Counted from the first letter of the stretch, positions 3,133 to 26,197 are shown. The stretch is DNA of 64,000 bases from a virus (IMGVR_UViG_3300036833_000232:1-64000); one strand, 5' to 3'. Notes: generated by a model from the sequence alone, not told the origin. Numbers and translations are program-made.

Positions 3133-3167
3133 CCCGCCCCCCACCACAGAACAGGAGCACTAGGTAG

Positions 3168-3868: not shown

Positions 3869-4023
3869 TGGCCGTTGAGTGGCGGGTGGCGATCGACGAT
3901 GAGGTCATCGCGATCGAACGTGACCGGATCACCTACACCACCGAATACGCGGACCTGTACGAGTGGCTTCGTGTCAGCGACCAGGTCGTTGACATTGCTG
4001 GCCAGCCGGGTGGTGACGTGTGA
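3868..4023 (+). CDS. small hypothetical protein
   Basis: TGATG coupling. Confidence 0.5.
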   Translation: MAVEWRVAIDDEVIAIERDRITYTTEYADLYEWLRVSDQVVDIAGQPGGDV

Positions 4024-4241
4024 TGACTGGTCGGCCCTGGTCGATCCCCGGAAACATGGTCATCCACTACGTCCAAGACGACACCGGCCGAGTGTGGATC
4101 AACAAGGTGGATCTGCTTGCGTGGCTGCGCGGCGAGGGGTCGGAGCGTACGTCGGCGGAGTTCCGGGAATACGCCGGCGTGTTGGCTACGGCGATTGACA
4201 AGGCATGTCCGTCTAACCAGGAAGGACTTTCGTCACCGTGA
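4020..4241 (+). CDS. small hypothetical protein
   Basis: coupled ORF. Confidence 0.5.
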   Translation: MMTGRPWSIPGNMVIHYVQDDTGRVWINKVDLLAWLRGEGSERTSAEFREYAGVLATAIDKACPSNQEGLSSP

Positions 4242-4501
4242 CCGAATCAAGCGGGAAACGCGCCCCGTCCCGACCAGTGTGGGTGCAGGGCGAAATCGAT
4301 GGTCAGCGCGCCGTTCCCGACACTGGGGTCGAGCCGTGGGTGACCCGCCTCAACCCGCCACACCCGTACCACATCGCCAAGGCCGCCGGCGCGCTGATGA
4401 CGGTCACCGCGACGTTGCGGCACGCCTACATGAGCGCCTACCAACTCGACGACGCCGGGCTGCTGGTCCGCGACGAACCGGGCGGCACACACTGTGACTG
4501 A
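4238..4501 (+). CDS. hypothetical protein
   Basis: GTGA overlap. Confidence 0.5.
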   Translation: MTESSGKRAPSRPVWVQGEIDGQRAVPDTGVEPWVTRLNPPHPYHIAKAAGALMTVTATLRHAYMSAYQLDDAGLLVRDEPGGTHCD

Positions 4502-5546
4502 CCTGGTCCACTCCCCCGGTGCCACAGTCACATGGCCAGCGTCCGCCCCGGACCTCATTGAGGAGATCCGGGCGGGCTGGCTGCTGCGATGCAAAAGCGT
4601 GCACACCCGCCAGGCGTACGAGCAGGACATCAAACAGTGGTTCGATTTTCTCGCCGCGCTCGGCGTGGATGTTCTGGCCGCGAACTCGGATCACGTCACG
4701 GCGTACATGCGTGTCTGCGAACAGTCCACCAGCGAAGACACCGGCCAACTGATCACCCCTGCGACCGTTGCCCGCCGGGTTTCGGTTGTGTCCAGCTTTT
4801 ACCGGCATGCCCGCCGACGGCACGCCATCACGGAAAACCCCGTCCAGGACGTCGACCGGCCCAAAATTGATCCGGACCACTCTGACACGGTCGGGTTGAC
4901 GCTGGATGAGTCCCGGCGCCTGGTGGAGACCGCCGCACTCTGCGCCCGGGACGCGCATGACCGCTACACCACAGCCAAGGCTGCTGGGCGGGCACATGTG
5001 CGGCTCCGGACCGCGTGGCTCGGCGCGGAACGCGACCACGCGATCATCGCGCTCATGCTGTCCGCCGGTGGCCGGGAAACCGAAATGGCCCGCGAAACTT
5101 GCATTGAGGACCTCGGATACGACCGCGGTCACCGGGTGCTTTTCGTGACCCGCAAGGGCGGCAAGCGGCAGTCCCTGGCACTGGGTGCATCCGCCCGGGT
5201 TGTGGATCGCTACCTGACAGTCATCCGCGAGGAGACCGGCCGCACCAGTGGGCCTCTGTTCTTGACTCACCGCGGTCAACCACCGGACCGGGCGTGGATC
5301 TTCCGCATGGTGCGGTCGCTGGCCGTACAGGCGCACATTCCGTCCGCAGCGCAGTTGTCGCCGCATTCACTGCGTCATACTTTCGCGACGACCGCGTTGG
5401 ATCTGGGGTCGACGTTGGATGAGTTGCAGGACGCGATGGGGCACGCGGACCCGAGGACGACCCGGCGGTATGACCGTGCGCGGAACCGGATTGATCGGTC
5501 GCCGGCACATCGGGTGTCACGGGCACTGCTTGGCGAAGACCAGTGA
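4494..5546 (+). CDS. tyrosine recombinase (XerC/D-like phage integrase family)
   Basis: catalytic R (SAGGRETE), K (RKGGK), HSLRH, MGHADPRTTRRY; N-terminal core-binding domain. Confidence 0.92.
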   Translation: MTDLVHSPGATVTWPASAPDLIEEIRAGWLLRCKSVHTRQAYEQDIKQWFDFLAALGVDVLAANSDHVTAYMRVCEQSTSEDTGQLITPATVARRVSVVSSFYRHARRRHAITENPVQDVDRPKIDPDHSDTVGLTLDESRRLVETAALCARDAHDRYTTAKAAGRAHVRLRTAWLGAERDHAIIALMLSAGGRETEMARETCIEDLGYDRGHRVLFVTRKGGKRQSLALGASARVVDRYLTVIREETGRTSGPLFLTHRGQPPDRAWIFRMVRSLAVQAHIPSAAQLSPHSLRHTFATTALDLGSTLDELQDAMGHADPRTTRRYDRARNRIDRSPAHRVSRALLGEDQ

Positions 5547-7283: not shown

Positions 7284-7406
7284 CCTGTTTGGTGCTGCCC
7301 GTGAGGGTTGCGCATGGTGAGGAACCTACCGGTGCCGATCTTGGTGGGTTCCTCACCTTTTTGTCCAGTGGGCGGGTGGTCAGCGGTGGCGGGTACGGTC
7401 GTGACC

Positions 7407-8366
7407 ATGGACGCGGTGATCGCGAAGTGGGCTGACGCTGCTGGCCACCCGGCTGGCGCGGCACTGCGCGCGGCTGGGTTCGCCGGGGTCGTGATCTACG
7501 TGGGTACCCCTAGTAGCGCGAAGGACTGCTCGGCGGCGGTGTACGCGGACTACGCGGCCCACGGGCTGGGCGTGATCGCCGTCTACGAGAACCTCACCAC
7601 CGACATCACTGGCGGCCGGGCAGCCGGTGTGGCGCACGCACAGGCCGCGCTCGCGGACATGGCCGCCAAGAACATCCCCGCCAGCGTCCCGCTCGGCGCG
7701 ACCGCCGATGAGCACTTCACCTCGACCATGGTGTCCCTCGCGGTTCAATACCAGGGCGGGTTCCACGACACCGTCCGCGCGGCCCACCCTGGCCGGCCGG
7801 TGGTGGCCTACGGGTTCGCCGAGTTCCTCACCGCAGTCCGCGCGACTGGGTTGGCTGACGTGTTCTGGCAGTGCGGCACCGCCCCGGCGTCGGGCGCGGG
7901 TGTGCACTTCTGGCAGCGCAACACCTCCCCCAGCACCGCGATCGTCGGCGGCGTGGTGTGCGACATCGACGACCAACTTCTACCTGTCCCGGAGGGGATT
8001 GACGTGGCGCAACTTGACGACATCCAGGCGGCGATCCAGACTGTGGCCGCCGGAGTTGGTGACCTTCGAGAGCAAGTGTGCGGGAAGGGCTGCCGCACCA
8101 CTGGCTACACCGGTTGGGTGCAACTCGGCGGGCACACCCTGGTCGACAGTGTGGAGATCGTCCTGGCTAACCTGGCCGCCAACCGGACTGCGATCATGGC
8201 TGCGGTGAACAGTGATGCGGCTGCGGGCAAGTCGGCGCTGGCCGCGTTGCTGACCGCTGTGCAGGCAAGTGATCCGGCTGCCACCGCGCGAGCGTTGGTG
8301 GCAGCCGGGTTGAACGCGCAGGCGGTAGCGCAGGCCCTCGTAGCTGACCTGGCGCCGAAAACGTGA
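7407..8366 (+). CDS. putative endolysin/cell wall hydrolase (DUF1906/GH25-like TIM barrel)
   Basis: AGFAGVVIYVG, GLGVIAVYE, VAYG, FWQC, VGGVVCDID; Ala-rich helical tail; TACGGT -10 element 7 nt upstream. Confidence 0.75.
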   Translation: MDAVIAKWADAAGHPAGAALRAAGFAGVVIYVGTPSSAKDCSAAVYADYAAHGLGVIAVYENLTTDITGGRAAGVAHAQAALADMAAKNIPASVPLGATADEHFTSTMVSLAVQYQGGFHDTVRAAHPGRPVVAYGFAEFLTAVRATGLADVFWQCGTAPASGAGVHFWQRNTSPSTAIVGGVVCDIDDQLLPVPEGIDVAQLDDIQAAIQTVAAGVGDLREQVCGKGCRTTGYTGWVQLGGHTLVDSVEIVLANLAANRTAIMAAVNSDAAAGKSALAALLTAVQASDPAATARALVAAGLNAQAVAQALVADLAPKT

Positions 8367-8376
8367 CCAGTCACAG

Positions 8377-8688
8377 TCAGAAGATCACGTTGCCCGTGAT
8401 CACGCGGTGCATGATGTGGGTGGTCGGGTAGGAGTAGAACGCGTCACGGGGATCGGTACCCGCGTCGAGAGCGCTCGGTTTCCACCTGGCGACTTCCTCG
8501 TCAGTTATGCGCAGGTCCCGCACGAACAGGAACCGTTGGGTGTTGCCGCTGCACGGTGCGGTGACTTCGCAGACGGCGTTGGTGACGGGATCGACGATCC
8601 GGTCACCCGCGGCCAGGTCACCCATGGGAACCGATTCGGTATAGAAGGCACCGAGGGCGGTGTGGAACTGGGAGTCTGCGTGGGTCAT
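8377..8688 (-). CDS. hypothetical protein
   Basis: ATGA overlap with upstream gene. Confidence 0.6.
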   Translation of the reverse strand: MTHADSQFHTALGAFYTESVPMGDLAAGDRIVDPVTNAVCEVTAPCSGNTQRFLFVRDLRITDEEVARWKPSALDAGTDPRDAFYSYPTTHIMHRVITGNVIF

Positions 8689-8861
8689 GGGGTTTCCCAG
8701 AGATTTTCGGTGGGGAGTCCGAGTCGGCGGCGGGCTGCTTCGACGTCTGCCCGGTAGGCGAGGACGTCCTGCTCAGTGATGACCTCCCCTTCGGGGGCGA
8801 TGTCGTCACGTTCCGCGATCCGTCCGACACCCGGCAGCGGGGTTTCGTTGTGGCTGCTCAT
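8685..8861 (-). CDS. small hypothetical protein
   Basis: GGAAAGGA RBS; MSSHNETPLPG... Confidence 0.6.
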   Translation of the reverse strand: MSSHNETPLPGVGRIAERDDIAPEGEVITEQDVLAYRADVEAARRRLGLPTENLWETP

Positions 8862-8986
8862 GCTGTCCTTTCCAGTGGTGGAGTGGTGGGCTTTTTGAGT
8901 ATCGCAGGTTGCATGGTCTGGTTGCGGTGGCGCTACGGCCTCTCGGCGATGCGTAGGGGTTTTCGTCAGCCGATCATCTTTCGCTG

Positions 8987-9229
8987 CTACGCCCCGCGCA
9001 GTGCGGCCGAGATGTCCTGGTGGCTGGCGCTCAGCACCTCCAGGTAGGCCTCGCCTAGCTGCTCCGTGACGTAGTTGTCCGACATCCAGAACGTGACCTC
9101 GTCCACGTTCAGGGTCTCGCGGGCGTGCATCGTGGCGACGATCGGGTCGGGGGCTTCGCCGACCTCCCAGTCGTGGTCCTCGGTGACGAGTCGGATGGCC
9201 TGGATCAGGCGGTCGGTTTTGACGGTCAC
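8987..9229 (-). CDS. hypothetical protein
   Basis: AAAGGAG RBS, downstream of promoter cassette copy 2. Confidence 0.7.
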   Translation of the reverse strand: MTVKTDRLIQAIRLVTEDHDWEVGEAPDPIVATMHARETLNVDEVTFWMSDNYVTEQLGEAYLEVLSASHQDISAALRGA

Positions 9230-9253
9230 TTTGTGCTCCTTTAGGTGGTCCTC

Positions 9254-9299
9254 TGTGGTGGTAACTCCAGTATGACATACGCGGGAGTGTAGGGCAAGC
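9254..9299 (-). promoter_or_regulatory. leftward promoter cassette, copy 2
   Basis: near-identical to 190-235. Confidence 0.75.
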
Positions 9300-9506
9300 C
9301 CGACCTACTGACGGATCACCGCACCCCAACACCGCATGTCACAGGTACTGTGATCAAGCGGTACCCCCGAACGGGTGACAGATGGAGGTGTCGCGTGTCG
9401 ATGTGGCGCGTCATCGGGGACATCACCCTCACCGCCCTATCGGCCACGGTGCTCGTGGTGTGCGGACTGCTCTACCTGAAAATCGTGCCCTGACCGAGGA
9501 GCCGCG

Positions 9507-10343
9507 GTGGATATCGATGCCAGCACCTGCCCCTGCTACTGCCACACCACCACCCCGGATGCGTCGTGCACGATCCTCGGCGGGTGCGGATACCTGCACG
9601 CCACCCGCCACCGCTGCCGACGCGGCGACCGGTGTGCCGACTGGGACCAGGTCGACACGGTCGAACCGGATGGTTCCCGCGGCCGGGTCCGGATCGGTGC
9701 CCCCATCAACAGTTCGACCGGCCTGTGCCTGGTGTGCGCCGGGCGCGCCGGGCAGGCGGTGGCCGAGTTGCCTCGCGACTACACCGAACTGTCCCTCATC
9801 CTCGGCCGCACCAGTATCGGCGGGGGCGAACCGGTCGCCGGGACCCCCGGGTTGTCCGTGCCGGTCCGGTTGGATGTGGAGGCTCTGCGCGCGGGGATGG
9901 TCGCCGAAACGACATGCTGGGCTGAGGTCGTCGCCGAACGCATCGGCGTCACCTGGAACTCCGACCTGATGGACCGGCACACCCGCCCCGGGTGGGCGCT
10001 GCAACGCGCCTGCCACCTGCTGGCCGCCGCGATGTCGCCGTGGCTGGCGGTACGAGACTGGACCCGCATGATGTGGCACCCCGACGGCCAGGCCGCGGAC
10101 CCCGAACCCCAGGACGGCGTCGACGGCGCTATCGCCCTCATCGAGCTGCACCACCAGGCCCGCCGATTGTGTGGGGTGACGCGGCTGGTGCACCGGATGC
10201 CGGTGCCGTGCATCACCTGCGGCCGGCGTGCGCTGCACCGCGACAACGGCGACGACCAGGTGTATTGCACCTACTGCGACCGTGTTTACAGTGGCGGCGA
10301 CTACAGCCAGGTGGTGTCGGTGCTCGCGTCGGCCGCCGGGTAG
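9507..10343 (+). CDS. Zn-finger protein, possible late-gene regulator
   Basis: multiple CxxC (CLVC, CITC, CTYC); lies upstream of the late region. Confidence 0.65.
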   Translation: MDIDASTCPCYCHTTTPDASCTILGGCGYLHATRHRCRRGDRCADWDQVDTVEPDGSRGRVRIGAPINSSTGLCLVCAGRAGQAVAELPRDYTELSLILGRTSIGGGEPVAGTPGLSVPVRLDVEALRAGMVAETTCWAEVVAERIGVTWNSDLMDRHTRPGWALQRACHLLAAAMSPWLAVRDWTRMMWHPDGQAADPEPQDGVDGAIALIELHHQARRLCGVTRLVHRMPVPCITCGRRALHRDNGDDQVYCTYCDRVYSGGDYSQVVSVLASAAG

Positions 10344-10353
10344 CCGACCGGTG

Positions 10354-10764
10354 ATGAAGCGGCGCCGGTGGCCGCGGCCGGCGGACACGGCGGTGGACCG
10401 GGCGCGGGCCATCGCCCGCGAGTACCGGGAAGCCCTGACCCGGGCGGATCCAGCCCAGTGCGCAGTGTTGGACCGGGCGGCGGCCGAGTTCGGCGAAACC
10501 TGGCTGACCGGTGCCGTCCAACACACGGACAGTGAACTGCTCACCCTCACCGACCTCGCGGAACTGCTCGGGGAGAAGCGAGGGACGGTGTGGGCGTGGT
10601 GGAACCGCGGCCGGATCCCGCGGGAACCCTCGGGGCTGTTCCGGGTGGACGCGGTGGAGGCGGCGTTGGTGGCGTGGCGTGTCGCCCGCGAAAACACCAA
10701 CCTGTCCGATGTCGCGCCGCTACCCTCCCTTCCCCCGGGGTCGCCCTGCCGCGAAGCGACGTGA
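10354..10764 (+). CDS. HTH (MerR/Xis-like) domain protein
   Basis: LTLTDLAELLGEKRGTVWAWWNRGRI. Confidence 0.65.
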   Translation: MKRRRWPRPADTAVDRARAIAREYREALTRADPAQCAVLDRAAAEFGETWLTGAVQHTDSELLTLTDLAELLGEKRGTVWAWWNRGRIPREPSGLFRVDAVEAALVAWRVARENTNLSDVAPLPSLPPGSPCREAT

Positions 10765-10785
10765 CGAGGAGATCCCGGGTACCAG

Positions 10786-11307
10786 ATGGCCAGACTGAAT
10801 GGCGAGGCTTCTGTGGCTGAGGACTTGATTGCCTGGGTGTCCGCGGCGATTGAGCAGACCGAGAAGATCGCACGGGCCGCTGAAGTTGAGGCACCGGGGC
10901 CATGGATACGCGGCCACCGTGAGTACAACCCGAAGGTTGATACCCCCGATGGCCAGCAGATCTACGACTCGGCGAGAGATGTGGTCGTCTACGACGAGGG
11001 GCAGCCCGGTCCAGCGTCAGTGGGGCACATCGTTCACAACAACCCGGCGGACACCCTGCGCCGCTGTGAAGCCGACCGGCGGCTGCTGGACCAGGTACAG
11101 ACGTGGCGGCACGAGTACGTTGACGGGGACCCGTGGTTTTCCTGCGCGCAAGCGGTGGATGACTCCGGTGCAGAACCGGGTAGCGGGTGCGCTGACGATG
11201 ACCGCGCTGGCCAGCCGTGCGACTGCCCGACCGGAACCCACATTAAGCAGGTGATGGCCGCGCTCGCGGCCCGCTACGGCATCACTACCGAGGAGATCCC
11301 GGCATGA
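10786..11307 (+). CDS. DUF6221-like actinophage protein
   Basis: HIVHNNPADTLRRCEADRRLL...ALAARY. Confidence 0.65.
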   Translation: MARLNGEASVAEDLIAWVSAAIEQTEKIARAAEVEAPGPWIRGHREYNPKVDTPDGQQIYDSARDVVVYDEGQPGPASVGHIVHNNPADTLRRCEADRRLLDQVQTWRHEYVDGDPWFSCAQAVDDSGAEPGSGCADDDRAGQPCDCPTGTHIKQVMAALAARYGITTEEIPA

Positions 11308-17867: not shown

Positions 17868-18305
17868 TCAGCCCGTGTGCTCCGGCCCCACTGGACGAAC
17901 CCCACGGCGCGCTGGCACCTGGTGCGCGGCGTCGTATTCGGCAACGATCTCGGCGGGGATACGACCCCGGTCCGCCACCAGATGGCCCGCTTTCCGCGCC
18001 CACTCCCGGATCGCCTTGTTCGCGTGGCCTGATGTGCTCGCGTGAACCCTGACATGGGCGGTTACCGGCTCCGTGTCCCGACTGTTCGCTGCGGCTCGTG
18101 TTCCCATGCCGCGTTTGATTCGGCCCCCGATACGGCGGGCGTGTTCCACGAAACCGGCGAGCGTATCCCGGAGTTGATCCGCGTTCTCCGCGCAGAGATC
18201 AATGGTGTAGTTCACGCCGTCCAACGAGAAGTCCACCGTCTCTACCCCCTCGGTGCTGACACCATCGAGGTCATCCACTACCTCAACAACCACCTTTTGA
18301 GCCAC
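17868..18305 (-). CDS. lsr2: Lsr2 family nucleoid-associated protein
   Basis: AQKVVVEVVDDLDG...YTIDL and IREWARKAG...RGRIP; GGAGG RBS. Confidence 0.93.
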   Translation of the reverse strand: MAQKVVVEVVDDLDGVSTEGVETVDFSLDGVNYTIDLCAENADQLRDTLAGFVEHARRIGGRIKRGMGTRAAANSRDTEPVTAHVRVHASTSGHANKAIREWARKAGHLVADRGRIPAEIVAEYDAAHQVPARRGVRPVGPEHTG

Positions 18306-18647
18306 AACAACCTCCGCCGTTGCCGTTTGTTTATTGGTGGCGGAGAGTATAGAGACGTGCGACACGCCGGGGGCATAAACCTCGCTTGACGTCACCTCAA
18401 TGGGCGAACATGTAGCCTGCCGCACCTACACCATCCTCGACTGGAGTAAAGGCGGCCAATGACTACCCGGAACACGCTGTACACCCTGGACCAGGTGTGC
18501 GCGGTGCACCACGTCACACCCCCCACTGCTACGGGGATCGCCCGGCACCGCGCCGAACAACGCTCCTGGTGGCGGCAGGTGTTTACCCGCCGCCACCCGA
18601 CGGTGCGTCTTTAGCTAGAACCCTCCAAAAGGGGGTTCTTTGGGCTG

Positions 18648-18911
18648 TTACTCGGTTGCCACGCAGAACAGGCAGCGCGGTAACGTTGGCTTCCCTGTCT
18701 GACTGTGAAGCTGGCCCTCCAGATCGTCCCGTTCGTCGAGCAACGCCAGCACCGCATGAGGAGATGCCGCCAGGAACAATTCCAAGCGCTGCCGCGAGGG
18801 TTGGCCAGGCCATTCGCGCGGACCAGTGGTCATCTGTTCGTCGGCGGCCTCCGCTAGTCGACGTAACTCACGCCACGTACAGATGGTGGCGTTCGGGGTG
18901 CAGGCGGTCAC
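18648..18911 (-). CDS. Ead/Ea22-like small protein
   Basis: AASPHAVLALLDERD motif; GTGA overlap. Confidence 0.5.
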   Translation of the reverse strand: MTACTPNATICTWRELRRLAEAADEQMTTGPREWPGQPSRQRLELFLAASPHAVLALLDERDDLEGQLHSQTGKPTLPRCLFCVATE

Positions 18912-19540
18912 CGCGGTGGATCTTTCGGCAACCACGAGGGGGCGTGCTCGCTGATATATCCGATGCACGAGGCGTTGACGTCGGACATCACCACTCGCTT
19001 ACCCGAACGCAGGAAGGCTCGGCCGGTGCGGCCGTAACCGCAGCAAAAGTCCCCCGCCGTGGAGTACCGCTGCGCGAGGGCATGCAAAAACTCGGGGGCC
19101 ACACCGTAGGTGCGGTCAGCCTCTGCCCCGGGGCGGTAACCGACGGCCACCGCTTCGTCTTCGTTGAGTCGCATCGGCAGCACCACGTCCGCTGTCGGCA
19201 GTTTCGCCACCGCGTGACGTCCAGTCACGAGGTACACAGGTCCTGCGGCGGCTTCCACGATCTCTCCTACCCGGTTCATGAACATGCTGTAGGTGCGGCC
19301 GTCGCTGATGCCGGCGCGTTCGTTGAACGTGTCATATCCGACTTGCCAGGGCAGGTCAGTCACGATCACGTCGCACGCCTCGTATTCGGCGGGCAGTGTG
19401 GTTGCGGACAAGAGGTCATGCGTGAACGCCACGCATTGCGGGCCCTCCCACCGCAGCACCGACGGTGCCGCTACGGGTGGCTTGTGGGCACCGTGGTAGT
19501 GCACGGTGGGAATCATGCTGCGGGCGCTGCTCTGGCTCAC
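18908..19540 (-). CDS. SAM-dependent methyltransferase-like protein (beta-class motif order)
   Basis: DVIVTDLPW (motif IV-like) precedes DFCCGYGRTG...MSDVN (motif I/II). Confidence 0.65.
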   Translation of the reverse strand: MSQSSARSMIPTVHYHGAHKPPVAAPSVLRWEGPQCVAFTHDLLSATTLPAEYEACDVIVTDLPWQVGYDTFNERAGISDGRTYSMFMNRVGEIVEAAAGPVYLVTGRHAVAKLPTADVVLPMRLNEDEAVAVGYRPGAEADRTYGVAPEFLHALAQRYSTAGDFCCGYGRTGRAFLRSGKRVVMSDVNASCIGYISEHAPSWLPKDPPR

Positions 19541-20802
19541 GCCGAAACCTCCTGGGTGTCGGTTGTGGTGAACAGGATTTGGTCGGGGGTGGCGTTCCAC
19601 TTATCGCGTCGGCGCTTCATCAACTCCTGGTATGCGATGAACGACGCGGTCGATTTGGGCTGGCTGAACCCCAAGCCTTTGCAGTAGAAGTCGTTGCGGA
19701 GCAGGGATTTGCAGACGCGTCGCCACGAGGGAACGAGCCGTTGCGCTTCCAGTCGCGGGTCGGCTTCGTCGGGGATGCCGTTCTCGTAGCCGCGTTCGAC
19801 CCACCACTTGGTGTGGAGCAGGATCTTGTTGCGGAACTGCTCCTCCGTTTTGGGTGGCATGGACGCGACCAGCAACTCGGCGAAGGTTCGCCAGGTGTGC
19901 CCCACCGGTTTGGTGATCTTCCGGTAGCCGTTGATCGCCCCCCACTCCTGCACGTACAGCGCCCCGCCGTTGGCGCCGTTGACTCGGGCGACGACACGCG
20001 CCCACGTTTCCGGCTCAATGAGGTGGAACAGCCACAGCCCACGCCGCTGGTCATCGCCGTAGGGTTGGCAGATGCGCATCTGGGAGGGTTTCAACCCGGC
20101 CATGTGCATGCGGTCGTACAGCTCGTTGTGCCGCTTCTCCGGGTACTTTCCGTGGTAGGTCCAGATGTCTTCCACGGTCATGTCGTAGATCGGGTAGGCG
20201 TTGTAGGTGTGCTCGGTGACTTTCGATGTCCACTGGTAGCCATTCCAGGTGGCTTTGCTGGTCGAGGCGATCGTGCGGTACCGGTTCAGTGACTCGTCCG
20301 CGCGGATGCCCACCAGGCAGGCGGTGCGCTCCCCTTTTCCGTAGTGGTCGCCGAACCGCACCATGAAGTCCTCGAATTCCATGCCCCGCCGGAAAAAGGG
20401 GTACGTGGACGGGTCGGTGACGGCCCGCCGTGGCGGGGTTCTGATCCAGGCTTCCTGTTGGTCCGGGTCCCAGCATTCCCACTTCGGTTCGTACACCGAG
20501 ACGGCGTTGCGCAGCGCCATGGGCAGGCAGATCCAGTGTTCCTCGTCGATCACGTCCGCGTACTCGTCCAGGCATGCCGCAGCGTGGTCGATGGTCAATT
20601 TGTATTGGCCTTCCAGGTCGATCAGCATCACCCCGAACTGGCGGTTCCGGGCGCGGGCTTCATCTGCGACGAGGTGCAGCAGCACGGTGCTGTCCTTGCC
20701 GGCGCTGAAACTGACGTAGACGCGCGGGAACTGGTCGAACACGTCGCTGATGCGCTGCCGGGCTGCGGTCAAGGTGTTGATGTCGAGTCGCCGTTTAGGC
20801 AT
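19537..20802 (-). CDS. PAPS reductase-like/DUF3440 protein (IbrA/YbdN family)
   Basis: PP-loop SFSAGKDS, IDLEGQY, GIRADESLNR, YPIYD, RICQPYG, SWRRVCKSLLRNDFYC. Confidence 0.9.
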   Translation of the reverse strand: MPKRRLDINTLTAARQRISDVFDQFPRVYVSFSAGKDSTVLLHLVADEARARNRQFGVMLIDLEGQYKLTIDHAAACLDEYADVIDEEHWICLPMALRNAVSVYEPKWECWDPDQQEAWIRTPPRRAVTDPSTYPFFRRGMEFEDFMVRFGDHYGKGERTACLVGIRADESLNRYRTIASTSKATWNGYQWTSKVTEHTYNAYPIYDMTVEDIWTYHGKYPEKRHNELYDRMHMAGLKPSQMRICQPYGDDQRRGLWLFHLIEPETWARVVARVNGANGGALYVQEWGAINGYRKITKPVGHTWRTFAELLVASMPPKTEEQFRNKILLHTKWWVERGYENGIPDEADPRLEAQRLVPSWRRVCKSLLRNDFYCKGLGFSQPKSTASFIAYQELMKRRRDKWNATPDQILFTTTDTQEVSA

Positions 20803-21238
20803 TGGCGTGCGTCCTCTCCCCGTGTAGTGGTGTTACCAGCAGTTCGAGGGGGAACAGTCCGGGAGTGCGGCTGCTCTCCCGTTCGGTACGCCATTCCCTC
20901 GCTGCCTGGTCGGCCACCATGTTGGCCGCGTGCTGTTCGGCGGCGGTCAGTGTCCACCACGCCAGCCGGGTGGCGTGCTCCGCGATCCCGGCGAGGTGGC
21001 AGCAGGTGGCTTGGCCGATCCAGGCGCGTTGGTTCTGGACCATGGTGGTGAGGTTTTGCTCGGCCGCGTTGGGCCAGTCACGCAGCATGCACCGGGCGGC
21101 ATCCAGAAAGACGGCGGGGTCGCTGAGGATGTGGGCGGCTTGCTCCGTTTCGGCGGTGACGTTCGATGGGTGCTGCCACATTCCGGCCTGCCAGTCTTCC
21201 CACTCCGTGTAGGGGTGGAAGACCTGGGGGTTAGCCAT
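20795..21238 (-). CDS. hypothetical protein between IbrB-like and IbrA-like genes
   Basis: HPYTEWEDWQAGMW...EQNLT...AWIGQATCC; overlaps both neighbours. Confidence 0.75.
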   Translation of the reverse strand: MANPQVFHPYTEWEDWQAGMWQHPSNVTAETEQAAHILSDPAVFLDAARCMLRDWPNAAEQNLTTMVQNQRAWIGQATCCHLAGIAEHATRLAWWTLTAAEQHAANMVADQAAREWRTERESSRTPGLFPLELLVTPLHGERTHANA

Positions 21239-21962
21239 CGCTGGCGTCCGGTGTGGTGATTCCGCCGTCGACTCCGGCGGCGGCCAGTGCGTCGTCATCG
21301 AGGTCGTCGGGGGCCAGTTCGGCTTCCCATGCCGCGCTGAATTCGCGGTCGGCGAAGGCGTCGGCGAGGCCGGTGATCTGGGTGAGGCGCAGTACCTCGT
21401 CGGCGTCCATACCCAACTCTTTGCTGATCTTGTTGTCGGACCAGTTTCGGCGCTTCAGCTCCAGCACGATGTCCGACATGCGGATCACTGAATGCTTGCC
21501 GCGGGCCCGGTTGTGACGGATCGTGGACGCCATCCGGTCAGGTCGGTCGCCGCGGTCTGCGCGGATCTGCACCAGCGGCAGGTAGCCGTGCACCCGTTCC
21601 GCCACGTCGGGGTATTCCTTGCCGACGCGTGACCGGTGGAACCCGTCGACGACTTCGCGGTGGCCGTCTTCCGCGTTCGACACGATGGGTTGGGTGAACC
21701 CGTCGGCGAGGACGGACAGGCGCAGCAACTCCATTTCGGGTGCGGCGACCGTGTTCGGGTTGTAGCTGTTGGCTTGGACGTCCGTTGCTGGCACCCATTC
21801 GATGTAGTCGACCGGTTCGGCGCTGAAGGGGCTGTATTCGGCGAGTACGGCTCGTAGTTCGTTGAGTAGTGCCACCTGGTTGGGCAGGTCGTGGTCCCGG
21901 AACCAGAGTTTCGCGAGGGCCCGGAGGTCTTTCGCGGCGCGGCTTTCGACGCGGTCACTCAT
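21231..21962 (-). CDS. ParB/Srx-like protein (IbrB/YbdM family)
   Basis: ANSYNPN, DGFTQPIV, VVDGFHR, STIRHNRARGKH, ELGMDADEVLRL. Confidence 0.9.
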   Translation of the reverse strand: MSDRVESRAAKDLRALAKLWFRDHDLPNQVALLNELRAVLAEYSPFSAEPVDYIEWVPATDVQANSYNPNTVAAPEMELLRLSVLADGFTQPIVSNAEDGHREVVDGFHRSRVGKEYPDVAERVHGYLPLVQIRADRGDRPDRMASTIRHNRARGKHSVIRMSDIVLELKRRNWSDNKISKELGMDADEVLRLTQITGLADAFADREFSAAWEAELAPDDLDDDALAAAGVDGGITTPDASDG

Positions 21963-22156
21963 CGCTTGGTGATCCTGTCTGTGGTGGGGACGTTCTGTTG
22001 TGCGCGTTCCGGCGGTGCCGTCGGCATTGTGTCGAGGTGGTTGAGGGCGTCGGTGAGTAGCACTCGGACCATGCTGGATCGGCTGCGGTCGTGCCGGTGG
22101 GCGGCGGCTTCGATTCGGGCGACCACGTCGTCCGGCACCGTCACTGTGATGCGCAT
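21959..22156 (-). CDS. ribbon-helix-helix (CopG-like) regulator
   Basis: MRITVTVPDDVVARIEAAA...SRSSMVRVLL; TATAGT -10 element 6 nt upstream. Confidence 0.8.
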   Translation of the reverse strand: MRITVTVPDDVVARIEAAAHRHDRSRSSMVRVLLTDALNHLDTMPTAPPERAQQNVPTTDRITKR

Positions 22157-22201
22157 TGCATCACTATAGCATCACTGTTCATCAGGTGGTGGTGCGCGGT
22201 G

Positions 22202-22651
22202 GTGCTGTCCAAACCCCAACGCGCCAAGGTCGCCGAACGCCGCGCCGAAGCCATCGGACTCCGCCTAGCCGGCATGGACTGGGACACCATCGCCACCCGC
22301 CTCCACTACGCCGACAAAGCCGCTGCCTGCAAAGACGTCTCCCGCGCCCTCGCCGCCCGCCTCGAAGAGGAAGGCCGCGCGGTTGAGGAGTACCGCGAGG
22401 TCGAGTTGATGCGCCTGGACCGTCTCCAAGCCGCAGCGTGGCCCGCCGCACTCGCCGGAGACGTCCGCTCCATCGAAGCCGTCCTACGCCTCATGATCGG
22501 CCGCTGGAAACTCCTCGGCCTGGAAGCACCTGTGCGGGCGGAGGTGCTGACCATCGATGCCATCAACGCCGAAATCCAGTCCCTCAGCGGACAGGTCGGC
22601 GGCGGAGATCCGGTTGGAGAGGTTGCAGGCCCTCCGGCGATTGAAGCTTGA
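22202..22651 (+). CDS. HTH protein, probable terminase small subunit
   Basis: LRLAGMDWDTIATRLHY HTH; directly upstream of TerL. Confidence 0.6.
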   Translation: MLSKPQRAKVAERRAEAIGLRLAGMDWDTIATRLHYADKAAACKDVSRALAARLEEEGRAVEEYREVELMRLDRLQAAAWPAALAGDVRSIEAVLRLMIGRWKLLGLEAPVRAEVLTIDAINAEIQSLSGQVGGGDPVGEVAGPPAIEA

Positions 22652-24143
22652 GGCTGAACAACGTGAGCGGGAACGGCTGGCCCGGCTGGACGTGTTCGGG
22701 CTGTTGCACTACGAGCCGACCCCAAAGCAGGCCGTGTTCCACGCCGCCACCGAGTTTGACGTCCTGTTCGGTGGAGCTGCTGGCGGCGGAAAAAGTCGTG
22801 CCCTTGTCATGCATGCGATCCGGGAATGCGTCCGCTACCCCGGTGTCCGGGCCGCGGCGTTCCGGCGCACGTATGGCGAGCTCAAAGATTCCCTGCTGGC
22901 CGAGTTGGCGCAGGTCGGGTTCGCGTCGGCGGTCGGGGCCCGGTGGAACGGCACCGACTACGACCTGCGGTTCCCCAACGGCTCCATCCTGCAATTCCGG
23001 TACGCCGAAACGATCCCCGACGCGTCCCGCCGACTGGGTGCCCAATACCAACTGCTGCTGTTCGACGAACGCACCCAGACGAACCCTGATGTGCTGCTGT
23101 TCCTGGAGTCCCGGCTGCGGTCCGGGCGCCGGGATGTGCCGGTGCTGGGGATCCGGTCGGCGACCAACCCCGGCGGCCCGGGCCACAGCATGGTCAAGTC
23201 GCGGTACATCAAACCGACCGCGTACGGCGAGCGGGTGGTGCGCGATGAGCGTGGCCGCACCGTCCGGTTCATTCCGTCCCGACTGTCGGACAACCCGCAC
23301 ATCAACCCCGAGTACGCCCACGACTTGCAGGTGCTGCCGGAGCAGATGCGCGCCGCCTACTTGGATGGCAACTGGGATGTGTTCGCGGGGATGATGTTCC
23401 CGGAGTGGTCGCACGACCGGCATGTTGTTGCCCCGTTCACGCTGCCTGCGGAGTGGCGGCGGTACAACGGCATCGACTGGGGTTACAGCGCGCCGTGGGT
23501 GGTTTTGTGGGCTGCGGTCGACGAGGACGGCCGGGTCTACGTCTACCGGGAGATCTCGGAGCGGGGTGTCGGCGAGGCCGAGCAGGCTGGCCGCATCCTC
23601 GCCGCTGAGGCTGCCGGGGAACAGGTGGTGGCCCGGTACGCGGATGACGCGATGTGGGCGACCCGCGGGGACGCGAAGCCGATCGCGCAGGTCTACGCGG
23701 ACAACGGTTGCCATCTCACCCCCGCCGGTAAGGGTGGTCGGGTCGCCGGGTGGCAGCGCATGCATTCCTACCTCGCGGAGGCGCCGGCGTGTCCGCATCA
23801 CCGCGCGCAGGGGTGGAAGTCGTGCCCGAAGCTGCATGTGTTCTCCACCTGTGAGCAGTTCGTTACGACGGTGCCGGATTTGCCGCATGCCACTACGGGG
23901 GATCCGGAGGACGCGGATACCCGCGCGGACGACCATTGTGCTGATGCGGCTAGGTATTTCATGATCAACCTTGGTACGGGTCCCGAGTTCACGATCTTCG
24001 ACGAACCGGAGGAACGTCCCCTGCACCAACCTGCCCCCGGGATGATCGTGGTCCCGCGTGATCACAACACCCCCCGGCGCCAGGCCGATGTCGACGAGGA
24101 CGGGCCGCGGCCGGGCGCCGTCACCATCTCCCCGTTCGCCTAG
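22557..24143 (+). CDS. terminase large subunit
   Basis: Walker A GGAAGGGKS, Walker B LLFDE, ATNPGG, GIDWG, DDHCADAARY. Confidence 0.95.
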   Translation: MPSTPKSSPSADRSAAEIRLERLQALRRLKLEAEQRERERLARLDVFGLLHYEPTPKQAVFHAATEFDVLFGGAAGGGKSRALVMHAIRECVRYPGVRAAAFRRTYGELKDSLLAELAQVGFASAVGARWNGTDYDLRFPNGSILQFRYAETIPDASRRLGAQYQLLLFDERTQTNPDVLLFLESRLRSGRRDVPVLGIRSATNPGGPGHSMVKSRYIKPTAYGERVVRDERGRTVRFIPSRLSDNPHINPEYAHDLQVLPEQMRAAYLDGNWDVFAGMMFPEWSHDRHVVAPFTLPAEWRRYNGIDWGYSAPWVVLWAAVDEDGRVYVYREISERGVGEAEQAGRILAAEAAGEQVVARYADDAMWATRGDAKPIAQVYADNGCHLTPAGKGGRVAGWQRMHSYLAEAPACPHHRAQGWKSCPKLHVFSTCEQFVTTVPDLPHATTGDPEDADTRADDHCADAARYFMINLGTGPEFTIFDEPEERPLHQPAPGMIVVPRDHNTPRRQADVDEDGPRPGAVTISPFA

Positions 24144-24511
24144 CCAGGTGGCGAGTCGACGAGTTGCCGGGTCCGACATGGCCAGTCCCGGCCGCACTCC
24201 ACGCAGACACCGTTGTCGGATTGGGTGTGAAGATCCCGCACCGCCCGGGCAAGGTGGTCGTAGTCGCGCGGCTCGTTCGGCCGCCGCGGACGAACGAAAA
24301 TGCCCGCGCCTTGGCGCCTGACCACCGTGCCATCGGCATGGAGTAGGTCCAGCGCGCGGCGCACGGTTTCGCGGGCGACCTGGAACCGGTCGCACAGCGC
24401 GCTAGCAGAGGGCAGCCGGTCGCCCGGTTGGTAGGTGCCATCCCGGATGCGGTCACGGAGCCACGCTGCGATTTGCAGATAGGCCGGCCGCGGGTCATCG
24501 AGATCCACCAT
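24140..24511 (-). CDS. GntR-family wHTH regulator
   Basis: YLQIAAWLRDRI...PGDRLPS...VARETVRRAL...RQGAGIFV. Confidence 0.88.
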   Translation of the reverse strand: MVDLDDPRPAYLQIAAWLRDRIRDGTYQPGDRLPSASALCDRFQVARETVRRALDLLHADGTVVRRQGAGIFVRPRRPNEPRDYDHLARAVRDLHTQSDNGVCVECGRDWPCRTRQLVDSPPG

Positions 24512-24577: not shown

Positions 24578-26197
24578 GTGGGTGCGTTCACCGAGGCGGC
24601 CGTCGGATGGTTGCTGAACCGGCCCCGCACCGGCGTGGTCGAGGCAGCGGACCGGGCGCTCGCCCCGGCGGTCCCCGAACGCGCCGGCTTCGAGTACGGG
24701 ATTCCCCGCGGCGGGTTGACCGAATGGAACGCGGGGGTCGGGGCCTCCACCCAGACTGACCGGCGCAGCCAGATGCAGGAGTTGTACGAGGCGTTCCTGG
24801 GCTGCCCGTGGTCGTGGGCGTGTGTGAACGCGATCGCCCGCACCATCACCGCCGGTGGCCTGGTCACCGACTGGGACGCCGATGACGGCGAAGGTGACCA
24901 GGACCAGCCGGCGAAACCGGCGAACGTGCTGGCGTTGGAGAAGCTGCTGACGTTCACCAACCCCCGCGAAGACATCCGCCAACTGTTGCGGTCCACAATC
25001 GCGGATTTGTTGGTGTTCGGGGACGCCTACATTGAGGTCACGTACGTTGGGTCGATCCCGGTCGCCCTGTACACGCTGGATTCGCCGTCAACGACGCCGA
25101 TCGCGGATGAGCACGGCACGATCACCGGGTATGTGCAGGTCACCGACTACGGGCAGCGCGCCACGTTCGAACCCCGCGAGGTCATCCACATTTCGCTGGA
25201 CGCACCCCGGTCGGGGGTGTTCGGGGTGTCGCCGACGCAGGCCGCGATCCTGCCGATCATGTCGTGGCTGTTCACCGCCGCGACCTTGAAAGAGACGTTC
25301 AGGAAGGGCAACCCCGCGAACATCTGGGCGGACATGCCAGCCGGAATGTCCTCCACGGAGCAGGCCCGGTGGATCGCCCAGTACCACACGAACAACCTCG
25401 GGCCCCGCAACATCGGCACACCGATCGTCACCAAAGGTGGCGCGCACATCCAGGAGTTGCAGGCCGGGAAAATCGCCGAGTATTTGCAGACGCTGGACCA
25501 GAAACGCGACGAGATCCTCGCCTCCTACGGTGTGCCACCAGCGCAGGCCACCGTCATCGAATCCGGCAACATCGGCTCCGGCACCGGCGAATCACAACGC
25601 AAAATGTTCCAAGTCAACACCTGCCAACCGATCGCCGAACTGCTGCTGGAGAAACTCAACTACGCGATCGTCAAACTCGGGTTCGCGATCGACGGGTGGC
25701 GCCTGAAATTCCGCGAGATCGACATGCGGGACTCGGCGGTGATCGAGCAGATCCGGGACATGCGGCTGCGGAACGGCTCGTGGGTGTTGAACAAGTACCG
25801 CACAGAGATCGGTGAGCCGCCGGTGCCCGGTGGGGACGACGCCATCCTGGTGGACCGCCAGAACCTGGTGTTGTGGCAGGACATGGCGTCCTACTCCACC
25901 AGCGGGATCGCCGCGAAGTTGAAGGGCACCGCGCTGGAACCGGCCGAGCCGGGAGCGCCGGGGACACCGGTCGGCCTAGAGAAACCCGAACCGGCCCCGG
26001 TGCCGGCCGCGTTGGCACCGTTCGCTGGGCAGGGCAACCCCGCCGGCACCGAGCAGGAACTCGACGGGGAAGATGGAGAAGAGGAAACCGTCGGGGCGGG
26101 TGTTGGGGTGTTGAGTGAGGCGTGGCAGCACGCCTACCGGGAACGCCTCGCGGTGGCGTTGCGGGAGCTACCCGGTGTGGATACCAACGCTGCATGA
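24578..26197 (+). CDS. portal protein (HK97-like)
   Basis: ACVNAIARTI, LLVFGDAYIE, EVIH, GVSP, EILASYGVPP. Confidence 0.92.
   Translation: MGAFTEAAVGWLLNRPRTGVVEAADRALAPAVPERAGFEYGIPRGGLTEWNAGVGASTQTDRRSQMQELYEAFLGCPWSWACVNAIARTITAGGLVTDWDADDGEGDQDQPAKPANVLALEKLLTFTNPREDIRQLLRSTIADLLVFGDAYIEVTYVGSIPVALYTLDSPSTTPIADEHGTITGYVQVTDYGQRATFEPREVIHISLDAPRSGVFGVSPTQAAILPIMSWLFTAATLKETFRKGNPANIWADMPAGMSSTEQARWIAQYHTNNLGPRNIGTPIVTKGGAHIQELQAGKIAEYLQTLDQKRDEILASYGVPPAQATVIESGNIGSGTGESQRKMFQVNTCQPIAELLLEKLNYAIVKLGFAIDGWRLKFREIDMRDSAVIEQIRDMRLRNGSWVLNKYRTEIGEPPVPGGDDAILVDRQNLVLWQDMASYSTSGIAAKLKGTALEPAEPGAPGTPVGLEKPEPAPVPAALAPFAGQGNPAGTEQELDGEDGEEETVGAGVGVLSEAWQHAYRERLAVALRELPGVDTNAA

Follow-up and report, generated by a model that had tools for sequence, protein, structure and literature searches.

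What does a phage do with an operon that places a PP-loop enzyme and a ParB-like protein next to a putative methyltransferase, back to back with its terminase genes? We addressed this question in a soil actinomycete phage, analyzing a 64,000-nt stretch of its genome (IMGVR_UViG_3300036833_000232:1-64000; hereafter the window). The six-gene block occupies positions 22156-18648, entirely on the minus strand, with the following features:

22146..22175, minus strand: candidate promoter/operator, a -10 element (TATAGT) with three repeat half-sites
22156-21959, minus strand: RHH gene, 65 aa, CopG/Arc-like
21962-21231, minus strand: IbrB-like gene, 243 aa, ATGA overlap with the RHH stop
21238-20795, minus strand: gene for a small all-alpha protein, 147 aa, 8-nt overlap with the IbrB-like gene, ATGGCTAA
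20802-19537, minus strand: IbrA-like gene, 421 aa, 8-nt overlap with the small-protein gene, ATGCCTAA
19540-18908, minus strand: methyltransferase-like (MT-like) gene, 210 aa, GTG start inside a GTGA overlap with the IbrA stop
18911-18648, minus strand: last gene, about 87 aa, phrog_4029, start predicted from a GTGA overlap with the MT stop
18617..18639, minus strand: terminator-like hairpin, 8 nt past the last stop codon, lacking a U-tract

A preliminary description of this DNA had reported six genes with overlapping starts and stops that face away from the terminase, and our reading of the ORFs agrees with it: all six lie where they had been placed, and translational coupling extends across all five junctions, with overlaps of 4, 8, 8, 4 and 4 nt. 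The divergent flank, starting at about 22199 on the plus strand, encodes a terS-like protein (phrog_645) and terL. An AGGAGG is found 7 nt upstream of the GTG at 19540 in the GTGA overlap, which was taken as the start of the MT-like gene after an ATG at 19516 and a GTG at 19600 had been rejected. Judged from its sequence, the last gene is most likely the 87-aa ORF rather than a 106-aa one; it matches phrog_4029 (8.7e-8), is retained after the MT gene in one related locus (L004) and is also present in another (L005). The hairpin that follows has a computed folding energy of -15 kcal/mol (z -2.18), and a consensus scan flagged the same spot on the plus strand. Beyond the hairpin, ~330 nt downstream of the operon, the gene for an Lsr2 nucleoid protein (PF11774, 2.5e-23) forms a separate transcription unit; an Lsr2 gene also comes after the operons of L004 and L006.

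The first gene product matches Pfam RHH_5 (1.6e-9) and RHH_1 (3.7e-7), as well as the Arc-like repressors of phrog_3431. A role as a type II toxin-antitoxin antitoxin was rejected, with the BrnA, VapB and RelB models scoring 19-20 bits against cut-offs of 50-60. The TATAGT element (22168-22163, minus strand) lies only 6 nt ahead of the RHH ATG, implying a leaderless mRNA, and is straddled by three GCATCAC/GTGATGC half-sites (22146-22152, inverted; 22158-22164; and 22169-22175) with a phasing of about 11 bp. The exact arrangement CATCACT-N4-CATCACT occurs once in the 64 kb. In L004, an RHH protein of unrelated sequence occupies the same position, and its gene is preceded by TAGAGT, 6 nt and the ATG, with flanking repeats, which is the same leaderless layout. 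Given these putative half-sites over the -10 and the conserved layout, the autoregulation suggested earlier is plausible, and the RHH protein is likely to control its own operon via the predicted operator repeats.

The gene pair at the center of the operon is indeed of the IbrB/IbrA type, as the preliminary description had it. The IbrB-like protein matches phrog_2159 (E 6.8e-69), and carries the motifs NxYNPN, DGFHR and RHNRARGKH together with a conserved C-terminal HTH, the family alignment having invariant columns; homologues occur in 225 deposited phage records. Searched against the PDB, the family profile matched the N-domains of ParB and Noc (4umk, 5e-7; 7ol9, 7e-6), which are CTP-binding domains. 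A ParB of a ParABS partition system was rejected: the protein scores 16.7 bits against Pfam ParB_N (PF02195), under the cut-off of 26.3, the ParB_N search of the genome was blank, and no ParA is encoded among the six operon genes. The IbrA-like protein consists of a PP-loop PAPS_reduct domain (PF01507; 2.3e-11, 44.5 bits vs a cut-off of 22.5) followed by DUF3440 (PF11922; 1.1e-32), and matches phrog_2302 (6e-76). Its catalytic motifs, S33-x-G-K-D-S38 and G165-x-R-x-x-E-S..R174, are invariant in the family, which is found in 150 deposited phage records.

Between the two genes lies that of the small protein, which carries the motifs WEDW..GMW and NxRAWIGQATCC and has no match in Pfam, PHROG or NCBIfam. 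It belongs to a conserved family of about 130-147 aa (780 representatives at E<=1e-3), unnamed in those three collections. Its AF2 model (pLDDT 91.6) is all-alpha, with six helices, and no matching fold was found in the PDB. Members of the family accompany ParB and PAPS reductase proteins in Microcystis phage Mwe-JY13, Pseudomonas phage Amjad_SA, Mycobacterium phage Gaia and Pseudoalteromonas phage XCL1123. Natural fusions join IbrA to IbrB (L012/L013) and IbrB to the small protein (L044; hhalign 99.7%), and these argue for a single complex.

The MT-like protein is likewise unnamed: it matches nothing in Pfam, PHROGs or NCBIfam, PF01555 was not detected in it at E<=0.01, and a genome-wide PF01555 search was blank. 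Its motif IV (DLPW) precedes motif I (GDFCCGYG) by about 95 residues. Across 105 aligned homologues of ~200 aa, none of which carries a Pfam domain, the GDFCCGYG SAM loop and an acidic residue past strand 2 are near-invariant. Motif IV reads [DE]-[LPIVMC]-[PSA]-[WYF], so that the acid and the aromatic residue are conserved but not the prolines; the catalytic consensus is (D/N/S)-P-P-(Y/F/W), compared with DLPW here and E-x-x-W in many relatives. Foldseek searches with the AF2 model (pLDDT 95.5) gave CcrM (E 3e-6), M1.HpyAVI and TTHA0409 as best matches. By VIA, the model aligned with M.BceJIV at Z 12.7 (3.1 A, 164 residues), with CcrM at 12.1 and with M1.HpyAVI at 11.8, and M.MboIIA fell within 12.7-11.8. 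A paralogous family of small PF01555 methyltransferases, which we call c6, has an invariant DPPW and aligns with the MT family by hhalign (98.5%, E 1.8e-15). From the model we are confident that the protein has the fold of beta-class DNA amino-methyltransferases in the permuted motif order IV, X, I-III, in keeping with the methyltransferase-like character, DLPW included, noted before. It had also been remarked that little room remains for a target-recognition domain (TRD). This is true, as the 95-residue stretch from DLPW to GDFCCGYG holds core strands and helices only and no recognizable TRD, but the arrangement is not unprecedented, since M1.HpyAVI is equally small.

Conservation of the methyltransferase beside ibrAB homologues had been put forward as a test, and its outcome does not refute the proposal: in a neighborhood survey of distinct IMG/VR loci (GC 29-66%, two gene orders), 31 of 34 have IbrA no more than 1.5 kb from the MT gene. 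The MT gene occurs apart from IbrA/IbrB in three loci (L009, L047 and L048), and only one viral exception has enough flanking DNA; linkage of the MT family to IbrA is thus close to obligate. The converse does not hold: a search of 50,697 deposited phage records, 150 of them with IbrA, did not find the MT family, so IbrA/IbrB can do without it. In most relatives of the cassette, stand-alone ParB_N proteins (phrog_620/498) and c6 adjoin the MT-IbrA-IbrB core, additions that characterize the other gene order; as a pair, c6 and the stand-alone ParB_N correspond to the phrog_498 ParB-methylase fusions of phages, split into separate proteins. Within the stretches fetched (at most 6 kb to either side of the MT gene), 17 of the 34 loci, the window's relatives among them, contain a terminase gene.

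We propose, with a probability of about 0.5, that the operon encodes an ATP- and SAM-dependent multi-protein machine that covalently marks the phage's own DNA before packaging, thereby evading host restriction. In this reading, the operon is one of the early or middle phage genes. The analysis shows the gene structure, the folds, the conserved motifs, the co-occurrence and the fusions; the chemistry at each step, DNA as its target and the role for the phage are inferred, as follows. A leaderless mRNA would be made from a promoter repressed by RHH bound to the GCATCAC repeats. IbrB, with its ParB/Srx fold, presumed NTP-binding site and HTH, would engage DNA and hold IbrA both directly and via the small helical protein, an assembly supported by the natural IbrA-IbrB and IbrB-small protein fusions. 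The PP-loop of IbrA could then transfer AMP from ATP to an oxygen nucleophile of some acceptor, a step proposed from the analogy to CysD and FAD synthase, the nearest relatives of IbrA that have been solved. Lastly, the apparently TRD-less MT would rely on the complex to engage DNA and would methylate an exocyclic amino group, possibly N6 of adenine, N4 of cytosine or one that IbrA has created.

Marking of DNA is favored by the coupled operon, the best structural matches of the MT model, all of which are DNA amino-methyltransferases, the near-invariant SAM loop, the acid and aromatic of motif IV ([DE]-x-x-[WYF]) and the invariant catalytic motifs of IbrA. It is also favored by the IbrA-MT adjacency, the terminase genes in half of the loci, the company of c6 and ParB_N in the other gene order, the match of the IbrB profile to ParB/Noc N-domains, the fusions and the operator-like repeats over a leaderless promoter. 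Several observations weigh against it. A basic surface for binding DNA is not obvious in either the MT-like protein (pI 6.1, near-neutral) or IbrB (pI 4.8, acidic). Motif IV deviates from DPPY/W, and in many relatives it begins with Glu, as in METTL14, which is inactive. The MT family is absent from the deposited records and stands without IbrA/IbrB in three loci. The phage encodes a separate C5 cytosine methylase, by which ordinary methyl-protection would already be covered. Finally, the only published IbrAB phenotype known to us is that IbrAB reportedly activates prophage eib genes (Sandt et al., in 2002).

Those eib genetics are one reason to ask whether IbrB, through its HTH, and IbrA instead co-activate late or prophage genes, in keeping with their names. 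The enzyme folds would then serve a regulatory modification or a nucleotide signal, and the operon would lie next to terS, where early genes meet late ones, because it controls the genes for packaging and structure. The conserved HTH, the immediate vicinity of terS/terL here and the frequent nearness of terminase genes in relatives fit such a switch. However, the IbrA PP-loop, its GxRxxES..R motif and the MT SAM loop stay invariant over 29-66% GC, which exceeds the needs of a DNA-binding activator; the operon is oriented away from terS, and the genomes of Gaia and Mwe-JY13 have the pair amid replication and recombination genes. Moreover, prophage genes could be activated indirectly, through damage to DNA or its modification. 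We consider control of gene expression unlikely.

Equally doubtful is a conflict system directed at other DNA, whether for superinfection exclusion, for defence or to attack the host nucleoid; in such a Dnd/BREX-4-like or PANGU-like module, non-self DNA would be marked or damaged by the ParB-like protein and the PP-loop enzyme. DndB/DndC and BrxP do belong to the same two superfamilies, but PADLOC gave only sub-threshold matches (DndC, 24.7 bits over 65-90 residues; BrxP, 17 bits), and no nuclease or other effector is encoded among the operon genes. A 2026 preprint catalogued candidate defence-linked operons that pair a YejK-type nucleoid protein with a PAPS reductase, and with Arc plus ParBc (10.64898/2026.04.06.716658), and the Lsr2 genes downstream of the operon here, in L004 and in L006 also speak for a conflict system; here, though, Lsr2 is transcribed separately behind the hairpin and is not YejK-like. 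In the phage genomes inspected, the pair sits among core early or packaging-proximal genes, and it recurs in 150-225 deposited phage records.

The substrate might also be RNA (e.g. tRNA), a free nucleotide or a small molecule, which we regard as less likely again. Characterized PP-loop enzymes act mostly on RNA, nucleotides or small molecules, and the ParB-fold proteins SerK and SbnI are small-molecule kinases. In line with this, the best solved relatives of the IbrA profile, CysD (1.9e-8), FAD synthase (8e-7) and LarE, act on small molecules, the IbrB profile weakly matches free serine kinase (SerK) and SbnI (E 0.005-0.02), and the MT-like protein and IbrB are not basic. Against this, the structural neighbors of the MT model are DNA methylases at Z 12-13 vs RNA methylases at 8-9, and its paralogue c6 exceeds the Pfam DNA methylase threshold. 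IbrB carries an HTH, and its match to the DNA-binding proteins ParB and Noc is much stronger than that to the kinases; the cassette is also accompanied by stand-alone ParB_N proteins of the ParB-methylase type.

Dnd-like phosphorothioation of DNA, an analogy drawn earlier from DndC, and 'PAPS reductase' auxiliary metabolism in sulfate assimilation are very improbable: the fold is common to DndC and CysH and the ParB-like partner recalls DndB, but the IbrA family alignment has no conserved Cys cluster or C-terminal Cys, its single, partly conserved Cys column (82%) providing no Fe-S or CysH-type catalytic motif, the NCBIfam DndC (TIGR03183) and CysH (PRK02090) models score 20 bits vs 290 and 17 vs 154, a cysteine desulfurase (PF00266) was not found in the 98,661-base genome (control found in 14/14 genomes), no DndD/E-like gene is among the six, and the DNA-type ParB partner, always present, would be superfluous for sulfate assimilation. 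Host IscS could stand in for a phage-encoded cysteine desulfurase.

Among known systems, the PF01555 methyltransferases (CcrM, M.BceJIV, M.MboIIA, M.RsrI and M1.HpyAVI) share with the MT-like protein the permuted order IV, short insert, X, I-III, and its model superimposes on them at Z 12.7-10.6, with rmsd 2.8-3.8 A over 143-169 residues. Unlike them, it is extended at the N-terminus by a conserved YH(S/G)A segment, reads DLPW at motif IV, shows no recognizable TRD, is near-neutral, falls outside the Pfam, PHROG and NCBIfam models and is nearly always encoded beside IbrA. Like the cassette, the phrog_498 ParB-methyltransferase fusions bring a ParB-fold protein and a beta-class methylase together in an early phage operon close to packaging genes; however, searches of the window found neither c6 nor a stand-alone ParB_N, the ParB-fold protein here is IbrB-like, and the cassette has a PP-loop enzyme as an obligatory component.

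The operons catalogued as candidates in clusters 8/9 of a recent preprint, from cellular genomes and near defence genes, likewise set Arc/RHH, ParB-domain and PAPS-reductase genes beside a YejK-type NAP gene, a likeness drawn from domain descriptions (10.64898/2026.04.06.716658). Membership of such PANGU-like NAP operons was rejected, as the neighboring NAP, Lsr2, lies outside the operon. DndB/DndC (also SspD and BrxP) likewise unite a DGxHR ParB-superfamily protein with an ATP pyrophosphatase of the PAPS-reductase fold, theirs acting on DNA, whereas the cassette is without the Cys cluster, desulfurase and DndD/E, and their models score far under threshold.

Also close are the IbrA/IbrB systems, for which we take the E. 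coli ECOR-9 IbrAB island and K-12 YbdN/YbdM as reference, along with the phage 'PAPS reductase' phrog_2302 and 'ParB-like' phrog_2159; we know of no biochemical function for that pair. The same two families adjoin in the same orientation, with PAPS_reduct plus DUF3440, DGFHR, RHNRARGKH and the HTH in common, and the pair of coliphage PhiR5_2 is 44% (IbrA) and 52% (annotated IbrB) identical to the one here. In contrast to the reference order, IbrA-IbrB, the order here is IbrB-small protein-IbrA, and the cassette adds the helical partner, the MT-like protein, the RHH and the 87-aa protein. Thus, this phage carries a widespread IbrA/IbrB enzyme pair together with a small helical partner and a pared-down enzyme that resembles DNA methylases.

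The fifth of the six operon genes encodes a 210-aa methyltransferase-like protein (MT) that had no match in any family library. Its 105 homologues are about 200 aa long, and none carries a Pfam domain. The alignment of these proteins contains CDV-x3-DLPW-x-G-x3-FNERAG towards the N-terminal end and GDFCCGYGRT ... SD-x-N-x2-CIGYI towards the C-terminal end, which is the permuted motif order of the beta class, with motif IV first and motifs X and I-III last. Motif I is near-invariant across the family and motif IV takes the form [DE]-[LPIVMC]-[PSA]-[WYF], the Asp being kept in the lineage of the window phage. The structures that best match the AF2 model (pLDDT 95.5) are without exception DNA amino-methyltransferases, and type III Mod subunits rank after them. 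Foldseek returned CcrM (3e-6), followed by M1.HpyAVI, TTHA0409, M.BceJIV, M.MboIIA and M.RsrI, while VIA-align gave M.BceJIV (Z 12.7; 3.1 A, 164 residues), M.MboIIA (12.3), CcrM (12.1) and M1.HpyAVI (11.8) and placed the METTL3/MTA1 group further away (Z 8-9). Judged by this model, MT folds like, and is taken to work like, a beta-class DNA amino-methyltransferase. The preliminary description, which gave it a DLPW motif and little room for a target-recognition domain, was correct; such a small size has precedent in M1.HpyAVI, a beta-class DNA methylase of similar length. No longer or fused forms of the family were found, which is weak evidence.

A search with the MT alignment yielded 43 loci in IMG/VR and only two in the species-representative genome set. 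Window proteins were placed on the loci by tblastn, all ORFs were clustered, and counts were made after dropping identical MT sequences. The survey bears out the association with ibrAB homologues whose absence would have counted against the proposed modification pathway: in 31 of 34 distinct viral loci, the MT gene has IbrA no more than 1.5 kb away. Because these loci cover 29-66% GC, the linkage is not due to recent common descent. The window-type architecture, (RHH)-IbrB-small-IbrA-MT, recurs in loci L004, L005 and L006, and in L044 with IbrB and the small protein fused; L014 and L015 have the same core, with MT ca. 2.3 kb upstream of it. In these last two loci (7306-10872) one phage carries both IbrA subtypes in tandem, as IbrA-IbrB followed by IbrB-small-IbrA, with MT ca. 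700 bp before the first IbrA, and the two subtypes may be non-redundant. A commoner architecture is MT-IbrA-IbrB, often within ParB_N-c5-c6-MT-IbrA-IbrB-ParB_N-terS-terL. Here c6 is a PF01555 DNA methylase of ca. 208 aa with an invariant DPPW (32.4 bits against a cut-off of 26.7), and a further ORF cluster, c3, comprises stand-alone ParB_N proteins like those joined to methylases in phrog_498. MT is a diverged paralogue of c6 (hhalign 98.5%, E 1.8e-15), DLPW aligning over DPPW and GDFCCGYG over DPCCGMGY. Since it does not reach the score of the curated model and its motif IV departs from the strict form, we regard MT as a new family within the beta-class fold rather than a PF01555 member.

In two of the three exceptions to the linkage, the sequence runs out no more than 800 bp from MT. 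The third, L009 (4214-8499), has a c6 methylase, a 120-aa ORF and MT directly before terS/terL, without IbrA or IbrB; these two minimal methylases, paralogues of each other, may also act as a pair by themselves. In half of the loci (17/34), the stretch retrieved around MT (up to 6 kb on each side) includes a terminase gene. The c5 gene (ca. 100 aa, motif ...AKTMPxxPHEY..., outside all Pfam and PHROG families) lies ahead of the c6/MT pair in 18 of the 34 distinct loci (for example L018, 298-594, and L016, 3659-3928) and lies downstream of MT in a locus from a Dehalococcoidia MAG (L048). Loci L033-L038 carry on the opposite strand, immediately upstream of the ParB_N-c5-c6-MT-IbrA-IbrB block, an amidoligase gene (PF12224, 3.7e-38) and a gene of the GGACT/AIG2-like gamma-glutamyl cyclotransferase fold (ca. 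2800-4600, minus strand). Neither c6 nor any other PF01555 gene, canonical ParB_N or thymidylate synthase occurs in the window phage genome; an MT-A70 search also matched nothing in it, a blank that is uninformative since the control matched nowhere. In the reverse direction MT is not a general companion of IbrA/IbrB: tblastn against 50,697 deposited phage records gave zero MT matches, although 150 carry IbrA and 225 carry IbrB. The operon DNA matched four deposited phage records, over short IbrA/IbrB stretches only.

Two partners of MT can be placed by their domains. The IbrA-like protein consists of PAPS_reduct and DUF3440 domains, with invariant S33-x-GKDS38 (the PP-loop), D62, E64 and G165-x-R-x-x-ES-x-x-R174, and the solved relatives nearest to its family profile are CysD (1.9e-8) and FAD synthase (8e-7). 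Both of these enzymes move AMP from ATP onto an oxyanion. The IbrB-like protein matches phrog_2159 (6.8e-69) and, with 16.7 bits only, Pfam ParB_N; a profile of 24 family members matches the N-terminal domains of H. pylori ParB (5e-7) and Noc (7e-6), which are CTP-binding domains, and more weakly (0.005-0.02) the ParB-fold kinases SbnI and SerK. Its invariant motifs are NxYNPN, G-x-TQP, DGFHR and RHNRARGKH, and an HTH is also present. Model scores and the absence of the expected partners led to rejection of a partition ParB role. Judged by sequence features, the pair belongs to the IbrA/IbrB kind, which also occurs in E. coli K-12 as YbdN/YbdM. The literature searched yielded only annotation-level mentions, and no functional or biochemical study, of IbrA/IbrB, YbdN/YbdM or DUF3440, and PADLOC gave no significant match on the operon. 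The suggested analogy to DndC and phosphorothioation was not borne out: IbrA has a single Cys column (82%) and no cysteine cluster, scores 20 bits against the DndC equivalog cut-off of 290 and 17 against the CysH cut-off of 154, and lacks the partners of either, and the phage genome encodes no cysteine desulfurase. Thus, neither phosphorothioation nor sulfate assimilation is supported.

The 147-aa product encoded between IbrB and IbrA has no Pfam, PHROGs or NCBIfam family, and none of 51 members of its family matches Pfam. A profile search of 1.84 billion representatives found 780 relatives at E<=1e-3 (676 at 1e-10), nearly all of 120-165 aa. Its AF2 model (pLDDT 91.6) has six helices and no structural relative, the best scores being a Foldseek E of 0.48 in the PDB and a VIA-align wide Z of 4.9; the ESM Atlas returned scores of at most 0.85, to unnamed clusters. 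The gene stands between ParB and PAPS reductase genes in Microcystis phage Mwe-JY13 and Pseudomonas phage Amjad_SA, and shortly after IbrA-ParB in Mycobacterium phage Gaia (gp103, gp104, gp106) and Pseudoalteromonas phage XCL1123. Going by gene order, the small protein is a regular third partner of the IbrA/IbrB pair. Natural fusions also join these proteins. A 535-aa ORF in L012 and L013 (4299-5906) combines IbrA (phrog_2302, residues 2-337, PAPS_reduct plus DUF3440) with IbrB (phrog_2159, residues 394-525), and a 387-aa ORF in L044 (3592-4755) combines IbrB (residues 42-240) with the small protein (250-371; hhalign 99.7%, E 2e-25). Assembly error is possible for single contigs; the IbrA-IbrB fusion was found twice, in different metagenomes. 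The fusions speak for one working complex of IbrA, IbrB and the small protein, with IbrB central.

All six genes lie on the minus strand and span 22156-18648. We refined the MT start from the sequence to GTG 19540, which overlaps the IbrA stop as GTGA, has AGGAGG 7 nt upstream and gives an N-terminus that agrees with aligned homologues (...SSARSMIPT...). The last gene most likely starts at GTG 18911, where GTGA overlaps the MT stop. From first to last, the five junctions read ATGA, ATGGCTAA, ATGCCTAA, GTGA and GTGA, and therefore all five are translationally coupled. A hairpin (-15 kcal/mol, z -2.2) follows the last stop. A sigma-70 consensus scan found no promoter; a -10 hexamer, TATAGT (22168-22163), was recognized by eye, followed by the 6-nt spacer GATGCA and the RHH ATG (22156), a geometry that implies a leaderless transcript. 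Actinomycetes commonly make such transcripts. Copies of GCATCAC at 22158 and 22169 and an inverted one at 22146 give three half-sites one helical turn apart that span the promoter and start codon. L004 has, at the equivalent position, an RHH gene of unrelated sequence with TAGAGT, 6 nt and ATG, and its own flanking repeats. Promoter layout is conserved between the two and operator sequence is not, as expected of an autoregulatory RHH protein, which is predicted to bind the repeats. The window protein matches RHH_5 (1.6e-9); a role as a toxin-antitoxin antitoxin was rejected, as antitoxin models scored far under their cut-offs.

The full IMG/VR record, from soil metagenome runs, is linear, 98,661 bases long and ca. 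95% complete (CheckV); the window is its first 64 kb and has a GC content of ca. 65-69%. Three soil metagenome contig sets, two of them possibly its source, are listed for it. The features that set the operon in its context are as follows.

Genes around the operon and elsewhere in the record
17868-18425, minus strand: Lsr2 gene (Pfam Lsr2, 2.5e-23), one flank of the operon
ca. 22199-22651, plus strand: terS-like gene (phrog_645), the other flank
22557-24143, plus strand: terL
24140-24511, minus strand: GntR-family HTH regulator (PF00392, 8.6e-21), in the short terL-portal gap on the opposite strand
24578-26197: portal gene, among the packaging genes
80076-81410 of the record, outside the window, plus strand: C5 cytosine methylase (478-aa ORF; PF00145, 69.7 bits)

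The Lsr2 gene begins ca. 330 nt downstream, behind the operon-end hairpin, and is a separate unit; in L004 and L006, too, an Lsr2 gene lies downstream of the cassette. The terL-portal gap is an unusual location for a repressor-type gene. The PF00145 match gives the phage a second, conventional DNA methyltransferase.

We put at roughly one in two the reading, taken as a whole, that the operon marks phage DNA for protection before packaging. IbrB would carry the complex to DNA, IbrA would use ATP to activate an oxygen acceptor, and MT, as a methylase lacking a target-recognition domain, would need the complex to engage DNA and would methylate an exocyclic amine; the mark would shield phage DNA made before packaging. 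Consistent with this are the coupled operon, a PP-loop enzyme of the adenylyl-transfer type with intact catalytic motifs, a ParB/Srx protein of the NTP-binding type with an HTH, a helical partner naturally fused to IbrB, a SAM-type methyltransferase that has the DNA-methylase fold and accompanies IbrA, the DNA methylases and ParB_N companions of relatives, and the site beside packaging genes. Against it, neither IbrB (pI 4.8) nor MT (pI 6.1) is basic, many relatives have Glu in place of the motif IV Asp, MT occurs without IbrA/IbrB in L009, L047 and L048, and a C5 methylase is already present in the phage.

The regulatory role that the names IbrA and IbrB imply is unlikely. Equally unlikely is a conflict system directed against other DNA or the host nucleoid, although the Lsr2 gene comes next after the operon here and YejK-NAP operons with PAPS reductase, Arc and ParBc are listed as defence-linked, albeit untested there, in a 2026 preprint (10.64898/2026.04.06.716658). 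More doubtful still is an undescribed post-replicative hypermodification, widespread in phages of hosts of 29-66% GC, in which IbrA, IbrB and the small protein form a complex bound to DNA, the PP-loop enzyme adenylates a DNA oxygen, a nitrogen group replaces it and MT methylates that group. The oxygen would be a base carbonyl or a backbone or pre-installed phosphate; TilS adenylates a base carbonyl on tRNA. An RNA or small-molecule substrate is quite improbable, and sulfur chemistry, given the IbrA results, has next to no likelihood.

Two added partners narrow the IbrA/IbrB problem: a methyltransferase of DNA-methylase fold almost never found away from IbrA, and a large helical family without a name, some members of which are joined to IbrB in one ORF. 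A putative four-protein complex, open to expression and assay, is defined by these partners and the IbrA-IbrB fusion, and the three-protein core has cultured carriers in phages Gaia, Amjad_SA and XCL1123. Should the operon make a DNA mark, this would be a new anti-restriction chemistry that bears on the host range of phages, on artefacts in sequencing and on enzyme tools, and the common virome label of 'PAPS reductase' genes as sulfur-metabolism auxiliary genes would need correcting. The nucleoid protein of the defence-linked operons is YejK-like and of an unrelated type, whereas that of the window is Lsr2; taken together, the two cases suggest that IbrAB-like cassettes may recurrently adjoin nucleoid proteins.
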